Below are positions 43,760-63,261 of a stretch of DNA of 64,000 nucleotides, in pieces (position 1 is the first letter of the stretch; every line of letters begins with the position of its first letter). The notes under the pieces are model-generated. The model worked only from the letters and a program-made list of their open reading frames with translations, ran no database searches and was not told the origin of the DNA. The DNA comes from an uncultured Candidatus Binatia bacterium (lineage in GTDB: Bacteria > Desulfobacterota > Binatia > HRBIN30 > CADEER01): contig CAYYWP010000002.1 of NCBI GenBank assembly GCA_964475125.1, positions 2,036 to 66,035 on the forward strand, read 5' to 3'. Position numbers and translations under genes: made by a program.

Positions 43760-44803
43760 ATGCAGTTCAGCCTCATGATCGAAACCAATCCACAGGCTCC
43801 GGCGCTCGCGAAGCTGGCCGAAGAGAACGGCTTCAACTGTCTCTTCATGATCGACACGCATATCGGTTGGCGGGAGGTGGTCCCGTATTTGACCTTGTGC
43901 GCGCACCAGACGAAGCGGCTGCGCATCGGCACGCTGGTGACCAATCCGGTCACGCGCCACCCGACCGTGGTCGCGAGCTACTTCGCCACGCTGCAGGAGA
44001 TCTCCAACGGGCGCATGGTCTGTGGCATCGCCAAGGGCGACTCCGCCACGCGCGTCATGGGCGAGCGGCAGGCGACCATGAAGGAGTTCCGCGAGGGGGT
44101 CGACCTGATCAAGCGGATGATGAACGGCGAGGAGATCCTGTACACGCCGAAACATCCCGACCGTTCGGCCTGGCTCAAGCAGGCCGGCGGCAAGCCGCTG
44201 AAGATCAAGTTCCACTGGTACAAGCCGCCCGCCAAGGTGCCGGTGTACATCGGTGGCTACGGCCCCAAGACCTTGCAGTTCGCCGGCGAGGTGGCGGACG
44301 CCGTGGTGGTGCAGGCGCCGAATCCCGATTCGCTGCGCTGGTCGCTCGGTCATGCGCACGCCGGCGCACGCCGCGTCGGTCGCGACCCGGCGACGTTGAA
44401 GACGGTGGTGTCGGGGCCGATCGTCCTCAACGACGACCTCAAACAGGCGCTGCGCGATGAGCGCTGGTTCGTGCAGGCCGTGTGGAACCACTCGGCGCAC
44501 CTGCTCGAGCACTACCGGCGCGAGGAGCTGCCCGAGTGCATGACCCTCGGGCTGCCGCAGGATTTCCACAGCGATTACACCGAGCACATCATCCGCGATG
44601 CCGAGGAGCTCTCGCAGGTGCCCGAGCGCGCCGTCGACCTGCTCACGGTCAGCGGGCCCGCCAGCCGCTGCATCGAGCGGCTCGAACAGCTCAAGGCCGG
44701 GGGCGCCAAGGAGTTCATCCACTACGCGGTGGCGAGACCGATGGCGGAGCTCGAGGCCACGATCCGCCGCATCGGCAAGGAGATCATTCCGCATTTCAGC
44801 TGA
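43760..44803 (+). CDS. LLM-class flavin/F420-dependent oxidoreductase, paralog of 967-2010
   Basis: MQFSLMIETNPQAPALAKLAEENGFNCLFMIDTHIGWREVVPYLTLCAHQTKRLRIGTLVTNPVTRHPTVVAS.... A GGAAGGGAGG RBS sits 7 nt upstream of ATG 43760. A 125-bp internal fragment is duplicated at 35101-35225. Confidence 0.85.
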   Translation: MQFSLMIETNPQAPALAKLAEENGFNCLFMIDTHIGWREVVPYLTLCAHQTKRLRIGTLVTNPVTRHPTVVASYFATLQEISNGRMVCGIAKGDSATRVMGERQATMKEFREGVDLIKRMMNGEEILYTPKHPDRSAWLKQAGGKPLKIKFHWYKPPAKVPVYIGGYGPKTLQFAGEVADAVVVQAPNPDSLRWSLGHAHAGARRVGRDPATLKTVVSGPIVLNDDLKQALRDERWFVQAVWNHSAHLLEHYRREELPECMTLGLPQDFHSDYTEHIIRDAEELSQVPERAVDLLTVSGPASRCIERLEQLKAGGAKEFIHYAVARPMAELEATIRRIGKEIIPHFS

Positions 44804-44978
44804 CCACCCGCTTTACCGCCGAGGGTGGGCCGTCTACACGTGCGGGCGGCGCGTCTCGCCGCCTCGGGAGGAGTTTGATGGGAGCCAGCATCGCCGGAGC
44901 ATCGCTGAGACGCGTCGAGGGCCCGCGCGTCCTCACCGCCCAGGTAGAAGCGGGATCCTGGCTTCGAGGTGACGCGGC

Positions 44979-47099
44979 ATGAAGCGAGTCGGGGTCGACG
45001 TCGGCGGCACCTTCACCGACCTGATCTACGTCGACGACGAGACGGGTGAGATCCGCGTCCACAAGCTACCCACCACGCCGCACGATCCGTCGCGCGGTAC
45101 CGTGCAAGGGATCGAGGAGCTCTCGAAGGCCGCGGGGCAGAGCCCCGCGGCGCTCGACCAGGTGTTCCACGGCACGACGATCGCGACCAACATCGTCATC
45201 GAGCACTCGGGCGCCAAGGTCGGGTTGATCACCACCGAGGGCTACCGGGACATCCTCCACATCGCCCGGCACAAGAAGCCGTTCAACTTTTCAATCTACC
45301 AGGACTTGCCGTGGCAACGGTACCCGATCGTGCGGCGGCGCTACCGGTTGACGGTGCCGGAGCGCATCACCAAGGACGGCTCGGTGCTGGTGCCGCTCGA
45401 CGAGGAGCGGGCGCGCGAGCAGGTCAGGAAACTGAAGCAGGCCGGCGTCGAGGCCGTCGCGGTCTGCTTCCTCTTCTCGTTCTTGAACCCGCAGCACGAG
45501 CAGCGGGTGGCGGCGATCCTGCGCGAGGAGTTCCCCGAGGCCTTTCTGTCCGTGTCCTCCGAGGTGCTGCCGCAATACCGCGAGTACGAGCGCTTCTCGA
45601 CCGTCTGCCTCAACGCCTACGTCGGTCCCAAGGTGGCGACCTACGTGCGGCGCCTCGAATCGGAGCTGCGCGGGCTCGGAGTGAAGACGGGGGTCCACCT
45701 GATGACCTCGGCGAGCGGCGTGTCGACGGCGGAGGCGGCGACGGCACGGCCGGTCAACCTGCTCATGTCGGGTCCGGTCGCCGGCGTCGTCGGCGGGATC
45801 TGGGCCGGGAAACAGGCGGGCTACGAAAACGTGATCACGCTCGACGTCGGCGGCACCTCGGCCGACATCGGGCTGGCGCAGGAAGGTCGGCTGCGCATGA
45901 AGCACCTGCTCGACACCAAGGTCGGGCCCTATCAGGCGATGATTCCGATGGTCGACGTCGACACGATCGGCGCCGGCGGCGGCTCGATCGCCTACGTCGA
46001 CCAGGGCGGCCTGTACCGCGTCGGGCCGCGCTCGGCGGGTGCCGACCCGGGTCCGGCGGCCTACGGGCGCGGCGGCACGGAGGCAACCGCGACGGACGCG
46101 ATGGTCAACCTCGGATGGCTCTCGCCGGACGACTTCCTCGGCGGCGGCATGCGGCTGCGGCCCGAGCTGGCGCGCCGGGTCTTCCAGGAGGGCCCGGGAG
46201 CCGCGCTCGGGATGTCGGTCGAGGAGGCGTCGATGGGCGCCGTGCAGATCCTCACCCACTCGATGGTGCAGGCGATCGAACAGAACTCGGTGCGCAAGGG
46301 CTTCGACCCGCGCGATTTCGTGCTCGTCGCCGAGGGCGGGGCGGGCCCCCTCTTCGCCGCCCAGATCGCGCTCGAGGTGGGGACGCCACACGTGCTCGTC
46401 CCGCCCTATCCCGGGGTGACCGCGGCGATGGGGCTGCTCGCCACCGACATGGTCTACGAGTACGCGATGACGACGTACCAGCGCCTCTCGGCGCTCGACG
46501 CGCCCGCGTTGCAGCTCGCCTTCGAGCAGCTCGAGCAGCGCGCCATGGCCCAGCTCCGGGCCGATGGGGTCCCCACCGAGCGGAGCGTGCTCCAGCGCGT
46601 GGCCGACTGCCGCTACTTCGGCCAGGGCTACGAGCTCCGCGTCGAGGCCGGCTCCGGCGCGATCGACCACGACTGGGTGGAGCGGCTGCGGGCGGACTTC
46701 CATCAGATCCACGAGCGCGAGTATTCGCGCCGCTTCGAAGAGGCGGATATCGAGATCCCGAACATCCGCGTCCGCGGCGTCGGTCTCCAGCCGCCACTGG
46801 AGATTTCCGAGATCGAGCCGGGCAGCGACTCGGCCGAGGCGGCGCGCACCCGCGAGGGCGAGGCGTGGTTCCGCGTCGACGGCGCGCTGCGCCAAGTGCG
46901 CACGCGCTACTACGACCGCGCCAAGCTGCGGGCCGGCAACCGCCTGCACGGGCCGGCGATCATCAATCAGTACGATTCGACGACGGTGATCCCGCCGGGG
47001 CTCTCCGCGCATGTAGACCGCTATGGCAATATCGTGATCACCATCGGTTCCGCCGCGGGTGTCGAGGCGGGCGCGGTGGGGACGGAGGCGAAGACATGA
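44979..47099 (+). CDS. hyuA: hydantoinase A / oxoprolinase family, second copy
   Basis: MKRVGVDVGGTFTDLIYVDDETGEIRVHKLPTTPHDP...ITLDVGGTSADI. 706 aa, paralogous to 17241-19349. Confidence 0.9.
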   Translation: MKRVGVDVGGTFTDLIYVDDETGEIRVHKLPTTPHDPSRGTVQGIEELSKAAGQSPAALDQVFHGTTIATNIVIEHSGAKVGLITTEGYRDILHIARHKKPFNFSIYQDLPWQRYPIVRRRYRLTVPERITKDGSVLVPLDEERAREQVRKLKQAGVEAVAVCFLFSFLNPQHEQRVAAILREEFPEAFLSVSSEVLPQYREYERFSTVCLNAYVGPKVATYVRRLESELRGLGVKTGVHLMTSASGVSTAEAATARPVNLLMSGPVAGVVGGIWAGKQAGYENVITLDVGGTSADIGLAQEGRLRMKHLLDTKVGPYQAMIPMVDVDTIGAGGGSIAYVDQGGLYRVGPRSAGADPGPAAYGRGGTEATATDAMVNLGWLSPDDFLGGGMRLRPELARRVFQEGPGAALGMSVEEASMGAVQILTHSMVQAIEQNSVRKGFDPRDFVLVAEGGAGPLFAAQIALEVGTPHVLVPPYPGVTAAMGLLATDMVYEYAMTTYQRLSALDAPALQLAFEQLEQRAMAQLRADGVPTERSVLQRVADCRYFGQGYELRVEAGSGAIDHDWVERLRADFHQIHEREYSRRFEEADIEIPNIRVRGVGLQPPLEISEIEPGSDSAEAARTREGEAWFRVDGALRQVRTRYYDRAKLRAGNRLHGPAIINQYDSTTVIPPGLSAHVDRYGNIVITIGSAAGVEAGAVGTEAKT

Positions 47100-62397: not shown

Positions 62398-62454
62398 TGT
62401 GTCCGGTCTCCTGACCGAGGGCAGACGCTGCGCGCGCGCTACCAGAGGATTCCC

Positions 62455-63261
62455 ATGACCGATCGCTATTCGCGTTACACGTCGCTGGCTATCGACCGGC
62501 CCGCCGACGGGGTGCTGCGCCTCACGCTCAATCGTCCCGAGCGGCTCAACGCGCTCGATCGCGACGGGCATCGCGAGTTGACGGAGATCTGGCGCGATGT
62601 GCATCAGGACCCCGAGGTGCGGGCCGTGCTCCTGTGCGGCGCGGGCAAGGCCTTTTCCGCCGGCGGGGATTTCGAGCTGGTCGGCGAGTTGATCGCCGAT
62701 TTCGATGCCCGCGTGCGGCTGTGGCACGAAGCCCGCGACCTGGTCCACAACATTCTCGATTGTTCCAAGCCCATCGTCTCGGCGATCCACGGCCCGGCCG
62801 TCGGCGCCGGACTGGTGGCGGCATTGCTGGCGGACATTTCGGTGGCGGCGAAGACCGCGCGCATCGTCGACGGGCACACCCGGTTGGGGGTGACCGCCGG
62901 CGATCATGCCGTGATCCTCTGGCCGCTCTTGTGCGGCATGGCCAAGGCAAAGTACCACCTGCTGCTGTGCGAACCGGTGAACGGCGAAGAGGCCGAGAAG
63001 ATGGGACTCGTCTCCTTGGCGGTCGATGAGCACGAGCTGCAGCAGAGGAGTCTGGATATTGCGACGCGCCTGGCCAACGGGGCGCCAACCGCGATCCGCT
63101 GGACCAAACACGCGCTCAACAACTGGATGCGCTCGGCCGGCCCTTCGTTCGACGCCTCGCTCGCACTGGAGCTGCTGGGCTTCAGCGGTCCCGAGGCCAA
63201 GGAGGGCCTGGCGTCCTTCCGGGAAAAACGACCGCCGGCCTTTTCGCCCAAGCGACGCTGA
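62455..63261 (+). CDS. enoyl-CoA hydratase/isomerase (crotonase) family
   Basis: [64 protein letters not shown]. Confidence 0.85.

Follow-up and report, generated by a model that had tools for sequence, protein, structure and literature searches.

Molybdenum hydroxylases of the CoxL family are usually described as fixed units in which a large, a medium and a small subunit (L-M-S) are encoded together, and a locus that encodes two large subunits in tandem, with neither partner in sight, raises the question of how such proteins can work and what they work on. This situation is found in a stretch of 64,000 nucleotides (hereafter the window) from an uncultured Candidatus Binatia bacterium (assembly GCA_964475125.1, contig CAYYWP010000002.1, positions 2,036 to 66,035), in which 12 genes, all on the + strand and separated by intergenic gaps of at most 228 bp, fill the 19.5 kb from 43760 to 63261 according to Pfam and gene calling. 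The genes have been called from the GC bias at third codon positions together with Pfam, at a GC content of ~68% in the window. They encode, in this order, a luciferase-like oxidoreductase (LLM), the two parts of an ATP-dependent hydantoinase/lactamase (HydA and HydB), the large subunits CoxL1 and CoxL2, a MmgE/PrpD-family protein (PrpD), a CitE-like acyl-CoA lyase (CitE), an acyl-CoA dehydrogenase (ACAD), two family III CoA-transferases (CaiB), an AMP-forming acyl-CoA synthetase (ACS) and a crotonase-family enoyl-CoA hydratase (ECH), and their closest database proteins belong to metagenome-assembled genomes (MAGs) of Candidatus Binatia. The gene families and coordinates given in the initial annotation have been borne out by Pfam, and only its order needs correction, as the ACAD gene stands before both CaiB genes. 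What is new here is that the CoxL subunits without partners make up a clade that is conserved and functional. The best explanation overall, a catabolic operon of three modules whose CoxL proteins receive CoxM and CoxS in trans, is one on which our judgement is evenly divided.

The absence of CoxS, the iron-sulfur (FeS) subunit, and CoxM, the flavin adenine dinucleotide (FAD) subunit, which the initial annotation had pointed out for the tandem pair, has held in every search of the window. No called gene of the 64 kb carries a CoxS or CoxM domain in Pfam, the two [2Fe-2S] cysteine motifs, looked for in all six frames, have given 0 matches there against matches in ~50 related loci, and blastp with Pfam-verified CoxM and CoxS references from related loci has found none in the window. 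Profile hidden Markov models (HMMs) built from 57 CoxS and 58 CoxM sequences, run unfiltered against all six-frame open reading frames (ORFs) of at least 30 amino acids (aa), have returned best E-values of only 1.2 and 2.6 in the window, the positive controls in L017 scoring 1e-83 and 1e-133 (L-numbers are labels of related loci that have been compared with the window). The canonical single operon, in which a CoxS with Fer2 and Fer2_2 and a CoxM with FAD_binding_5 and CO_deh_flav_C adjoin the large subunit, is thus not what the window holds.

Both large subunits are nevertheless intact. CoxL1 (49062-51443, + strand, 793 aa), the divergent copy, and CoxL2 (51501-53912, + strand, 803 aa), a typical member of the orphan clade described below, are molybdopterin-binding large subunits of the xanthine dehydrogenase (XDH) family that share 74% identity over 793 aa, close to the roughly 70% of the earlier estimate. 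All three domains of such subunits (Ald_Xan_dh_C, MoCoBD_1 and MoCoBD_2) match in both copies with E-values from 1e-25 to 1e-78, and both proteins align end to end with CoxL of M. smegmatis (8uem, 477 bits, the best PDB match) and with quinoline oxidoreductase (1t3q, 461 bits), further PDB matches being 1n5w (414 bits) and 7dqx (388 bits). Gln217, the GGxFGxK loop (G245-G246-x-F248-G249-x-K251), Arg362 and Glu747 are present in both, align with the counterpart residues of 8uem and 1t3q, and are invariant in 28 family members as well as in 107 of 107 tabulated CoxL sequences. At 177 positions that are conserved in at least 95% of the family, CoxL1 deviates three times and CoxL2 once, the family median being one. 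The ratio of nonsynonymous to synonymous substitution (dN/dS) against the orthologs in L078 is 0.166 for CoxL1 (85% identical) and 0.138 for CoxL2 (88% identical, as it also is to its ortholog in L003), with 0.11-0.165 for the neighbouring genes, and both CoxLs evolve under purifying selection. The intact catalytic residues, the few deviations and the low dN/dS of 0.14-0.17 therefore close the possibility, raised at the outset as one that would undo the annotation, that the two proteins are pseudo-enzymes lacking their molybdenum ligands. The CoxL1 of L078 was also considered as a pseudogene and rejected as such, since its apparent split is a 100-N scaffold gap.

The active-site loops set the two proteins apart from CO dehydrogenases. 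In form I enzymes a loop AYxCSFR contains the Cys that carries the Cu of the Mo-S-Cu centre, and form II CoxL, putatively CO dehydrogenase-like, has the loop AYRGAGR. CoxL1 (PYRTFGKDAA) and CoxL2 (GYRAMGKEAA), by contrast, share the type [GP]YR[AT][FM]GK[ED]AA with no Cys at the Cu-bearing position, and because the AYxCSFR loop is missing they are not CO dehydrogenases; among the 107 sequences AYRCSFR occurs only in L077_1356. AYRGAGR is likewise absent from both, this loop type being confined to distant, 38%-identical paralogs such as L021_12173 and L064_8062, and in the alignment the dinucleotide-binding motif reads SPGSGNET in the window instead of QGQGHET in CO dehydrogenase. No NCBIfam equivalog is reached by either protein: the best match of both is glyceraldehyde dehydrogenase alpha (590 and 624 bits), followed closely by the CO-dehydrogenase group model (588 and 612 bits), each below its cutoff, and 4-hydroxybenzoyl-CoA reductase alpha, a clear homolog, scores 409-434 bits in NCBIfam and 253 bits against PDB 1rm6. 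Compared with the CoxLMS/QorLMS heterotrimers (CO dehydrogenase, quinoline 2-oxidoreductase, 6-hydroxypseudooxynicotine dehydrogenase), the window proteins have the same three-domain large subunit with catalytic Gln, Arg and Glu and GGxFGxK, and relatives that share 52-58% identity with them come from canonical L-M-S operons; they differ in being encoded without CoxM and CoxS in cis and in standing within a CoA-ester catabolic operon. Molybdenum hydroxylases of CoA-ester pathways are known in 2-furoyl-CoA dehydrogenase (HmfABC) and 4-hydroxybenzoyl-CoA reductase, whose FeS and FAD subunits are encoded in cis. In the window, too, the gene for an XDH-family large subunit has those for an acyl-CoA synthetase and a crotonase-type enzyme in its company, whereas the FeS and FAD genes are missing in cis and the similarity is lower than to the CoxL and Qor types.

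What had looked like a peculiarity of this locus has turned out to be clade-wide. A scan of a genome collection with the family alignment has yielded 75 loci, which were annotated by BLAST against a labelled reference set. The loop type GYRA[FM]GKEAA, to which CoxL2 and its relatives in L003/L078, L004-L009, L011, L012, L067, L071, L079 and L080 belong, comprises 18 members, 16 of them orphans, one with CoxM and CoxS in cis and one partial; at least 3.5 kb are visible on both sides of ten of these 16 orphans. In the sister clade AYRG[YF]GK the proportions are reversed (n = 62; 49 with CoxM and CoxS in cis, 11 orphans, 2 partial), and the association of loop type and orphan state gives a Fisher p of 5e-8 for loci that are not phylogenetically independent. 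By sequence, CoxL2 is assigned to the GYRA[FM]GKEAA clade and CoxL1 to the position of its divergent paralog. The orphans, with a mean pairwise identity of 65%, keep 226 of the 262 positions that are conserved in the cis clade, without any sign of a broad relaxation relative to it, and the five fixed differences (positions 256, 259, 326, 360 and 363) fall in the sequence neighbourhood of the GGxFGxK motif and of the active-site loop. Lacking a partner gene is accordingly a conserved property of a functional clade and not an accident of one genome.

How the orphans are served with electron-transfer subunits is suggested by the exceptions. L010 and L014 contain operons of the form L-M-S-L', in which the second large subunit (L') has the orphan-type loop, and these are the only members of the clade in the sample that are linked to CoxM and CoxS; the L' of L010 is 73-74% identical to true orphans. 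Further L-M-S-L' operons of the family occur in L016, L018, L024 and L031. Immediately upstream of an orphan-type large subunit in L019 lies a 76-aa ORF that matches Fer2 weakly, with an E-value (8.7e-4) that does not pass the Pfam cutoff. The L-M-S-L' operons with an orphan-type L' and this possible CoxS stub point to shared electron-transfer subunits, and, provided that the rest of the explanation holds, borrowing of CoxM and CoxS in trans, as read from the relatives, is the likeliest mechanism and somewhat more probable than its contrary. The second large subunit of L014 (13733-16176) shows a shift of the reading frame near residue 140, which reflects either a sequencing error or gene decay. 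In the sampled loci of the sister MAG JBFXHX01, ~14 CoxL-family genes have been counted against one CoxM/CoxS pair, that of the canonical L-M-S operon in L017, ~13 of them having no CoxM or CoxS in view. XdhC maturation genes adjoin the orphan CoxL in L002. An analogy is offered by the Rieske oxygenases of sphingomonads, in which a single set of electron-transfer proteins serves catalytic subunits encoded at scattered sites: many dispersed paralogous catalytic subunits face few electron-transfer gene sets there as in the sister MAG, although the protein families are unrelated and the sharing of CoxM and CoxS proposed here is reasoned from gene arrangement. Our literature searches on orphan coxL and on XDH-family enzymes in Binatia have returned nothing usable.

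The company in which the orphans stand has been kept in relatives. The tandem CoxL pair with HydA and HydB upstream and PrpD, CitE and, further on, two CaiB genes downstream is conserved in L078, L003/L082 and L085. L078 reads sigma-54 activator, MDR reductase, HydA, HydB, isochorismatase-family amidase, CoxL1, CoxL2, PrpD, CitE, MaoC, ACAD, CaiB, CaiB; L082 goes on with ACS and ECH; and L085, from another sample, shows the C-terminus of CoxL2 and, after it, PrpD, CitE, MaoC, ACAD, CaiB and CaiB. The MaoC hydratase and the amidase of these closest relatives are absent from the window copy. At the position that ACS occupies in the window, behind the CaiB pair, L085 has a second MmgE/PrpD-family gene (6851-8335, 494 aa). 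Other genomes contain CoxL orthologs (69-82% identity), each directly followed by an orthologous LLM (60-72% identity; L005, L006, L079 and L080), and these CoxL-LLM pairs are interleaved with CitE, MaoC, ACAD and CaiB-CaiB genes that are related only distantly (30-34% identity). The arrangements are ACS, MaoC, CitE, CoxL, LLM, ACAD, CaiB, CaiB, amidase in L002/L006, with XdhC nearby; amidohydrolase, MaoC, CitE, hydrolase, CoxL, LLM, ACAD, CaiB, CaiB, CoxL, amidase in L079, with NicX nearby; CoxL, LLM, ACAD, CoxL, CoxL, LLM, CaiB, CaiB in L080; and CoxL, LLM, CaiB, CoxL, ACAD in L005. At the CoxL/LLM junction the two genes overlap by 4 nt in L080 and share a boundary base in L002. This recurrent interleaving of CoxL-LLM pairs with CoA genes argues for a functional link between the molybdenum enzyme, the LLM and dicarboxyl-CoA chemistry. 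HydAB, CoxLMS and LLM also stand together in the Thermoleophilia loci L013, L023, L049, L061 and L072.

The genes upstream of the CoxL pair bear on the substrate class. HydA, the alpha part (44979-47099, + strand; Pfam Hydant_A_N, Hydantoinase_A and Hydant_A_C), and HydB, the beta part (47096-49012, + strand; Hydantoinase_B, 1.3e-142), the start of which overlaps the HydA stop by 4 nt, form the adjacent pair of Hydantoinase_A, with its N and C domains, and Hydantoinase_B that characterises ATP-dependent hydantoinases and oxoprolinases. Among the enzymes of this kind (N-methylhydantoinase, caprolactamase, 5-oxoprolinase; HyuA/HyuB, CapAB), the two subunits are co-linear end to end with the fused PDB entry 7hk5, 'N-methylhydantoinase': HydA aligns with its residues 1-689 at 838 bits and HydB with residues 700-1278 at 697 bits and ~58% identity, the window enzyme differing in that it is split in two. 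The fit to 7hk5 is far better than to the caprolactamase/oxoprolinase 6yra (427 bits for HydA) or to acetone and acetophenone carboxylases, and in NCBIfam HydA matches CapA with 582 bits, below the cutoff of 1000, the CapB cutoff being likewise unreached. In creatinine catabolism N-methylhydantoinase is followed by N-carbamoylsarcosine amidase. L078 resembles this sequence of steps in that HydAB is followed by an isochorismatase-family amidase; it is unlike it in that no creatinine-pathway genes are present, and the window copy is without the amidase. The L078 amidase is closest to biuret and triuret hydrolases and to RutB, and N-carbamoylsarcosine amidase 1nba is a weak match (43 bits).

The LLM (43760-44803, + strand, 347 aa; Pfam Bac_luciferase, 3.4e-52), whose ATG is preceded by the ribosome-binding site AGGGAGG, probably falls in the F420-dependent class. 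In NCBIfam its highest-scoring matches belong without exception to F420 LLM families, though none reaches its cutoff (the best, TIGR03842, scores 229 bits where 295 are needed), and the solved structures closest to the LLM are F420 enzymes throughout (Mer with 106 bits, hydroxymycolate dehydrogenase, Adf and FGD); a literature search on F420 in Binatota has given nothing usable. Beside the orphan cluster CoxL-LLM-ACAD-CaiB-CaiB-CoxL of L079, at 1616-3315 (- strand) and 6107-7483 (+ strand), genes for a protein with a NicX-like 2,5-dihydroxypyridine dioxygenase domain, an isochorismatase-family amidase, an alpha/beta-hydrolase and an amidohydrolase have been found, a set that hints at pyridine-ring catabolism in that relative. 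The initial annotation had proposed degradation of an N-heterocycle or a hydroxylated aromatic acid; an N-containing cyclic substrate does fit HydAB, the L078 amidase and the NicX context of L079, while aldehyde oxidation by the CoxLs is equally compatible with the sequence data. From these assignments, the likeliest function of the operon would be the breakdown of a cyclic amide or N-heterocycle to a dicarboxyl-CoA.

Downstream of the CoxL genes the products point to dicarboxyl-CoA chemistry. The MmgE/PrpD-family protein (53991-55418, + strand, 475 aa, by Pfam) has iminodisuccinate epimerase as its best PDB match (96 bits) and is 63-68% identical to betaproteobacterial proteins, among them an ortholog in C. 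basilensis (66%) in the same kind of neighbourhood; the window protein probably isomerises or epimerises a substituted succinate. CitE (55453-56343, + strand, 296 aa; Pfam HpcH_HpaI) matches malyl-CoA lyase (124 bits) in the PDB better than the Ccl-like 8khl ('probable acyl-CoA lyase beta chain', 73 bits), which we take to be the Ccl of P. aeruginosa, and in NCBIfam citE (146 bits) and RipC/Ccl (121 bits), both below cutoffs. The ACAD (56404-57597, + strand, 397 aa) carries four ACAD Pfam domains and reaches no NCBIfam equivalog. For the first CaiB (57613-58881, + strand, 422 aa; CoA_transf_3, 4.8e-108) the best NCBIfam matches are the succinyl-CoA:mesaconate (274 bits) and succinate-glutarate (263 bits) CoA-transferases, both below cutoffs. 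The second CaiB (59038-60228, + strand, 396 aa; CoA_transf_3) is always paired with the first in relatives, which suggests a heteromer; the stop and start codons of the two genes overlap in L002, L079 and L080. The ACS (60457-62397, + strand, 646 aa; ACAS_N, AMP-binding and AMP-binding_C) is of the acetyl/acetoacetyl-CoA synthetase type, and the ECH (62455-63261, + strand, 268 aa; ECH_1), encoded by the final gene of the operon, passes the cutoff of the NCBIfam subfamily PRK07327 (449 against 292 bits) and has counterparts with 72-77% identity in Cupriavidus, Sphingobium and Burkholderia.

Experiments have established that itaconate and methylsuccinate are degraded by enzymes of the CaiB, MaoC, CitE, ACAD and PrpD families (Ict, Ich, Ccl, Mcd and Msi, respectively), and the chemistry of the MmgE/PrpD family has been described in the same work (PMC12290011). 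C. necator has, in addition, further itaconate-induced clusters of unknown role (PMC13491972). Four of the five families are found in the window, where the 60 bp that separate CitE from ACAD contain no MaoC gene, and all five in L078, L082 and L085. The scheme of the P. aeruginosa/C. necator cluster, in which a substituted succinate is activated, dehydrogenated, hydrated and cleaved, fits as well. The identification of the module with this characterised cluster has, however, found no support: CitE scores 73 bits against the Ccl-like structure and 124 against malyl-CoA lyase, the Cupriavidus PrpD ortholog lies outside the five-gene cluster, and MaoC is missing; Msi Q0K3E6 is absent among the 15 of 42 cluster members listed. 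The Cupriavidus neighbourhood of the window orthologs differs from the itaconate cluster in having two adjacent CaiB genes, an ACS-ECH pair, IclR/LysR and TctC. It is seen in C. necator locus L083 (CP017758), which is without CoxL and reads IclR, ACS (646 aa), ECH, CaiB, CitE, MaoC, ACAD, CaiB (414 aa), CaiB (380 aa), with PrpD and TctC nearby. The identities between the window and L083 amount to 78% for CitE, 76% for ECH, 75% for CaiB 2, 72% for CaiB 1, 61% for ACS and 49% for ACAD; the ACS proteins have equal length, and ECH adjoins ACS in both. From the CitE scores and the PrpD neighbourhood it follows that 'C5-dicarboxylate', as the module had been labelled from its itaconate/citramalate/mesaconate-type signature, is a well-founded analogy, in which the enzyme families agree, and not membership, since orthology to the characterised enzymes (Ccl PA0883, Msi Q0K3E6) is not supported. 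Identities of 72-78% for CitE, ECH and both CaiBs are unusually high across phyla as distant as those of a Binatia MAG and Betaproteobacteria, and they suggest that the CoA module has been transferred horizontally.

Taken together, these features can be arranged into a scheme of three modules, and that 43760-63261 forms one co-directional catabolic operon built in this way is a proposition we would neither favour nor disfavour beyond the balance. In the first, ring-processing module, the F420-class LLM would act with the split, ATP-dependent HydAB, which would hydrolyse a cyclic amide or ureide. In the second, CoxL1 and CoxL2 would join with CoxM and CoxS made by a canonical L-M-S operon at another genomic site, so that the CoxLs could be seen as interchangeable, substrate-specific 'heads' on a shared electron-transfer module, each inserting a water-derived oxygen at an electron-poor C-H, be it a heterocycle carbon next to N or an aldehyde. 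The third would comprise the PrpD-type isomerase, activation by the two CaiBs or the ACS, the ACAD, a hydratase (ECH here, MaoC in the relatives) and the CitE-type lyase, and would, on the itaconate/methylsuccinate analogy, cleave a substituted C4-C6 dicarboxylate to acetyl-CoA-type and 2-oxoacid- or glyoxylate-type products. The stages might follow each other as hydroxylation by the molybdenum enzyme, a reductive or oxidative LLM step with subsequent ATP-driven ring opening, and finally a methylsuccinate-like CoA pathway.

Several points weigh against this scheme. Assignments below the superfamily level stay mostly under the curated NCBIfam cutoffs, so that no enzyme has an assigned substrate, and glyceraldehyde dehydrogenase alpha as the best NCBIfam match of the CoxLs does not favour heterocycle hydroxylation. 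The window lacks MaoC and the amidase, and its activator gene is a 96-aa inverted remnant; it is possible that this copy has been rearranged, lacks parts or is expressed poorly. The supply of CoxM and CoxS in trans is deduced from the loci of relatives rather than from CoxM and CoxS genes of this genome, and the shared ancestry of the surveyed cis loci means that the Fisher p overstates the evidence. With ~13 partnerless CoxLs for each CoxM/CoxS pair, as in the sampled loci of the sister MAG, one pair would moreover serve many operons, which is a regulatory complication.

The alternative that survives best concerns the substrate and is compatible with CoxM and CoxS supplied in trans: the CoxLs may be aldehyde oxidoreductases and not heterocycle hydroxylases, with the LLM (or the MDR reductase of L078) interconverting an alcohol and a carbonyl and the CoxLs oxidising the resulting aldehyde-acid to the dicarboxylate for the CoA module. 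It would account for the best NCBIfam match of both proteins and for the CoxL-LLM pairs that stand directly inside acid-activating CoA modules, and it agrees with the alcohol, hydroxymycolate and glucose-6-phosphate dehydrogenases among the solved, F420-dependent relatives of the LLM, with the non-homologous MDR-family oxidoreductase at the LLM's operon position in L078, and with a CoxL score of 316 bits against PDB 4zoh, an entry deposited only as a putative oxidoreductase molybdopterin-binding subunit. Yet the aldehyde scores lie below the curated cutoffs, CO dehydrogenase and quinoline oxidoreductase score similarly, and the conserved hydantoinase and ureide-amidase genes and the NicX context would be left unexplained. 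We regard aldehyde oxidation as a doubtful but serious contender.

It is a good deal less probable that the orphan CoxLs work without FeS and FAD subunits altogether and that the translationally coupled F420-class LLM, or another acceptor, takes up the reducing equivalents of the molybdenum centre. This proposal draws on the LLM orthologs directly downstream of orphan CoxLs with their overlapping junctions, on an orphan state that is stable across a clade of such divergence, and on the excess of CoxL-family genes over CoxM/CoxS pairs in the sampled loci of one MAG; if true, it would give the xanthine oxidase family a novel redox architecture, devoted to dicarboxyl-CoA/heterocycle catabolism in Binatia and related soil lineages. 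The adjacency of the LLM, considered as a sign that it replaces CoxM and CoxS, has been weakened, however, for LLM genes also lie beside canonical L-M-S operons in the five Thermoleophilia loci, which argues against such a substitution, and in L078 an MDR reductase takes the place of the LLM while the CoxL pair is kept. In the window itself HydAB stands between the LLM and the CoxL pair. In two cases an orphan-type large subunit shares an operon with CoxM and CoxS, and the orphans have not undergone the broad loss of conserved positions expected had two large interfaces been abandoned. F420 is, furthermore, an obligate hydride carrier, while Mo(IV) is normally reoxidised in one-electron steps.

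Just as improbable, in our estimate, is that the modules are mere neighbours, HydAB with the LLM, the CoxL pair and the CoA module serving unrelated pathways and having been joined by rearrangement. That the CoA module stands alone in Cupriavidus, that the 5' end of the window operon is rearranged, with an inverted activator remnant and an LLM in place of the MDR reductase of L078, and that the MaoC and amidase genes of the relatives are missing would all be understandable on this assumption. It is opposed by the 12 of 12 genes on one strand with their short gaps and no terminator-like sites above chance, by the juxtaposition of CoxL, HydAB and CoA module that is kept in L078, L003 and L085, and by the four different arrangements in which CoxL-LLM lies between CoA-module genes, the CitE, ACAD and CaiB paralogs there being only distant relatives. 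Finally, that CoxM and CoxS lie in the up to ~5.2 kb of the 69,157-bp source contig beyond the window, which the searches have not covered, is very improbable, as neither has been found in the 43 kb of the window upstream of the operon, in the ORF starting downstream at 63380, which has no FeS or FAD domain, or on the syntenic contigs L078 (10 kb upstream) and L082 (8 kb downstream), and as ten clade members whose two flanks can be seen in full are likewise orphans.

Returning to the three-module operon with partners supplied in trans, its control can be followed to the 5' end. Intact sigma-54 activators precede the operons in L078 and L002; in the window only a remnant of such an enhancer-binding protein is left (43113-43403, - strand, 96 aa), which consists of the C-terminal Fis-type helix-turn-helix (HTH_8, E 7.8e-11) and shares 73% identity with residues 455-540 of the L078 activator, a complete GAF/AAA+/HTH_8 protein of 551 aa, no other part of which has been found in the window. 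A candidate sigma-54 (-24/-12) promoter, TGGCGG-GGAAT-GTGCT (43644-43659, + strand), lies ~100 nt upstream of the LLM start and is weak, with 7 of 11 consensus positions. Similar elements of the form TGGYRC-N5-GTGCT stand before the first genes in L078 (TGGCGC-AAAAT-GTGCT), L079 (TGGTAC-AGGAC-GTGCT) and L080 (TGGTAC-CGCAT-GTGCT). A scan with the strict sigma-54 consensus has given no site near the operon, scans for sigma-70 promoters and terminators have given nothing above chance, and Rfam, including the molybdenum cofactor (Moco) riboswitch, has 0 matches in the window. With the activator inverted and truncated, the LLM occupying the position that the MDR reductase holds in L078, and the amidase and MaoC missing, the 5' end of this copy has been remodelled, and its expression is uncertain.

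The wider meaning lies in the finding that intact large subunits are systematically unlinked from their electron-transfer subunits and are spread over the catabolic operons of uncultured soil bacteria, frequently with several to a locus. If one CoxM/CoxS pair is shared among them, the family is modular, much like Rieske oxygenase systems, and annotation pipelines as well as surveys of CO oxidisers that count coxL would mis-assign many; if no partners are needed, the route of electron transfer is new. The uncharacterised, highly conserved CoA module of the model organism Cupriavidus necator is now tied to hydantoinase-type and molybdenum-dependent steps, which gives a handle on its substrate.

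Other loci of the window deserve brief mention. A first catabolic cluster (17238-31543, + strand) contains another HydA/HydB pair, 39% and 32% identical to HydA and HydB of the operon, together with a B12-dependent acyl-CoA mutase (large and B12-binding subunits), a long ACAD, a thiolase, an acyl-CoA synthetase and a FadB-like fusion of 3-hydroxyacyl-CoA dehydrogenase and hydratase. Genes for methylamine dehydrogenase (35225-38892, - strand), namely the heavy chain (37633-38892), MauE (37005-37706) and the light chain (35778-36497), are accompanied by a possible c-type cytochrome (35225-35791, - strand), a set that fits methylotrophy in Binatia. Three very long ORFs of 1740, 1686 and 614 aa (3999-15733, + strand), with weak RHS-repeat matches and otherwise unannotated, may represent a toxin or cell-surface locus. 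A peroxiredoxin-like (AhpC/TSA) ORF at 31970-32449 (+ strand) has an in-frame TGA (32087-32089) at the first Cys of the redox motif W-C-P-F-C, read as W-U-P-F-C, and probably encodes a selenocysteine-containing protein of this type; an 8-bp hairpin (GCUGCAG(G)-GGU-...) starts ~17 nt downstream, with a folding energy that is ordinary for its GC content (z = -0.6).

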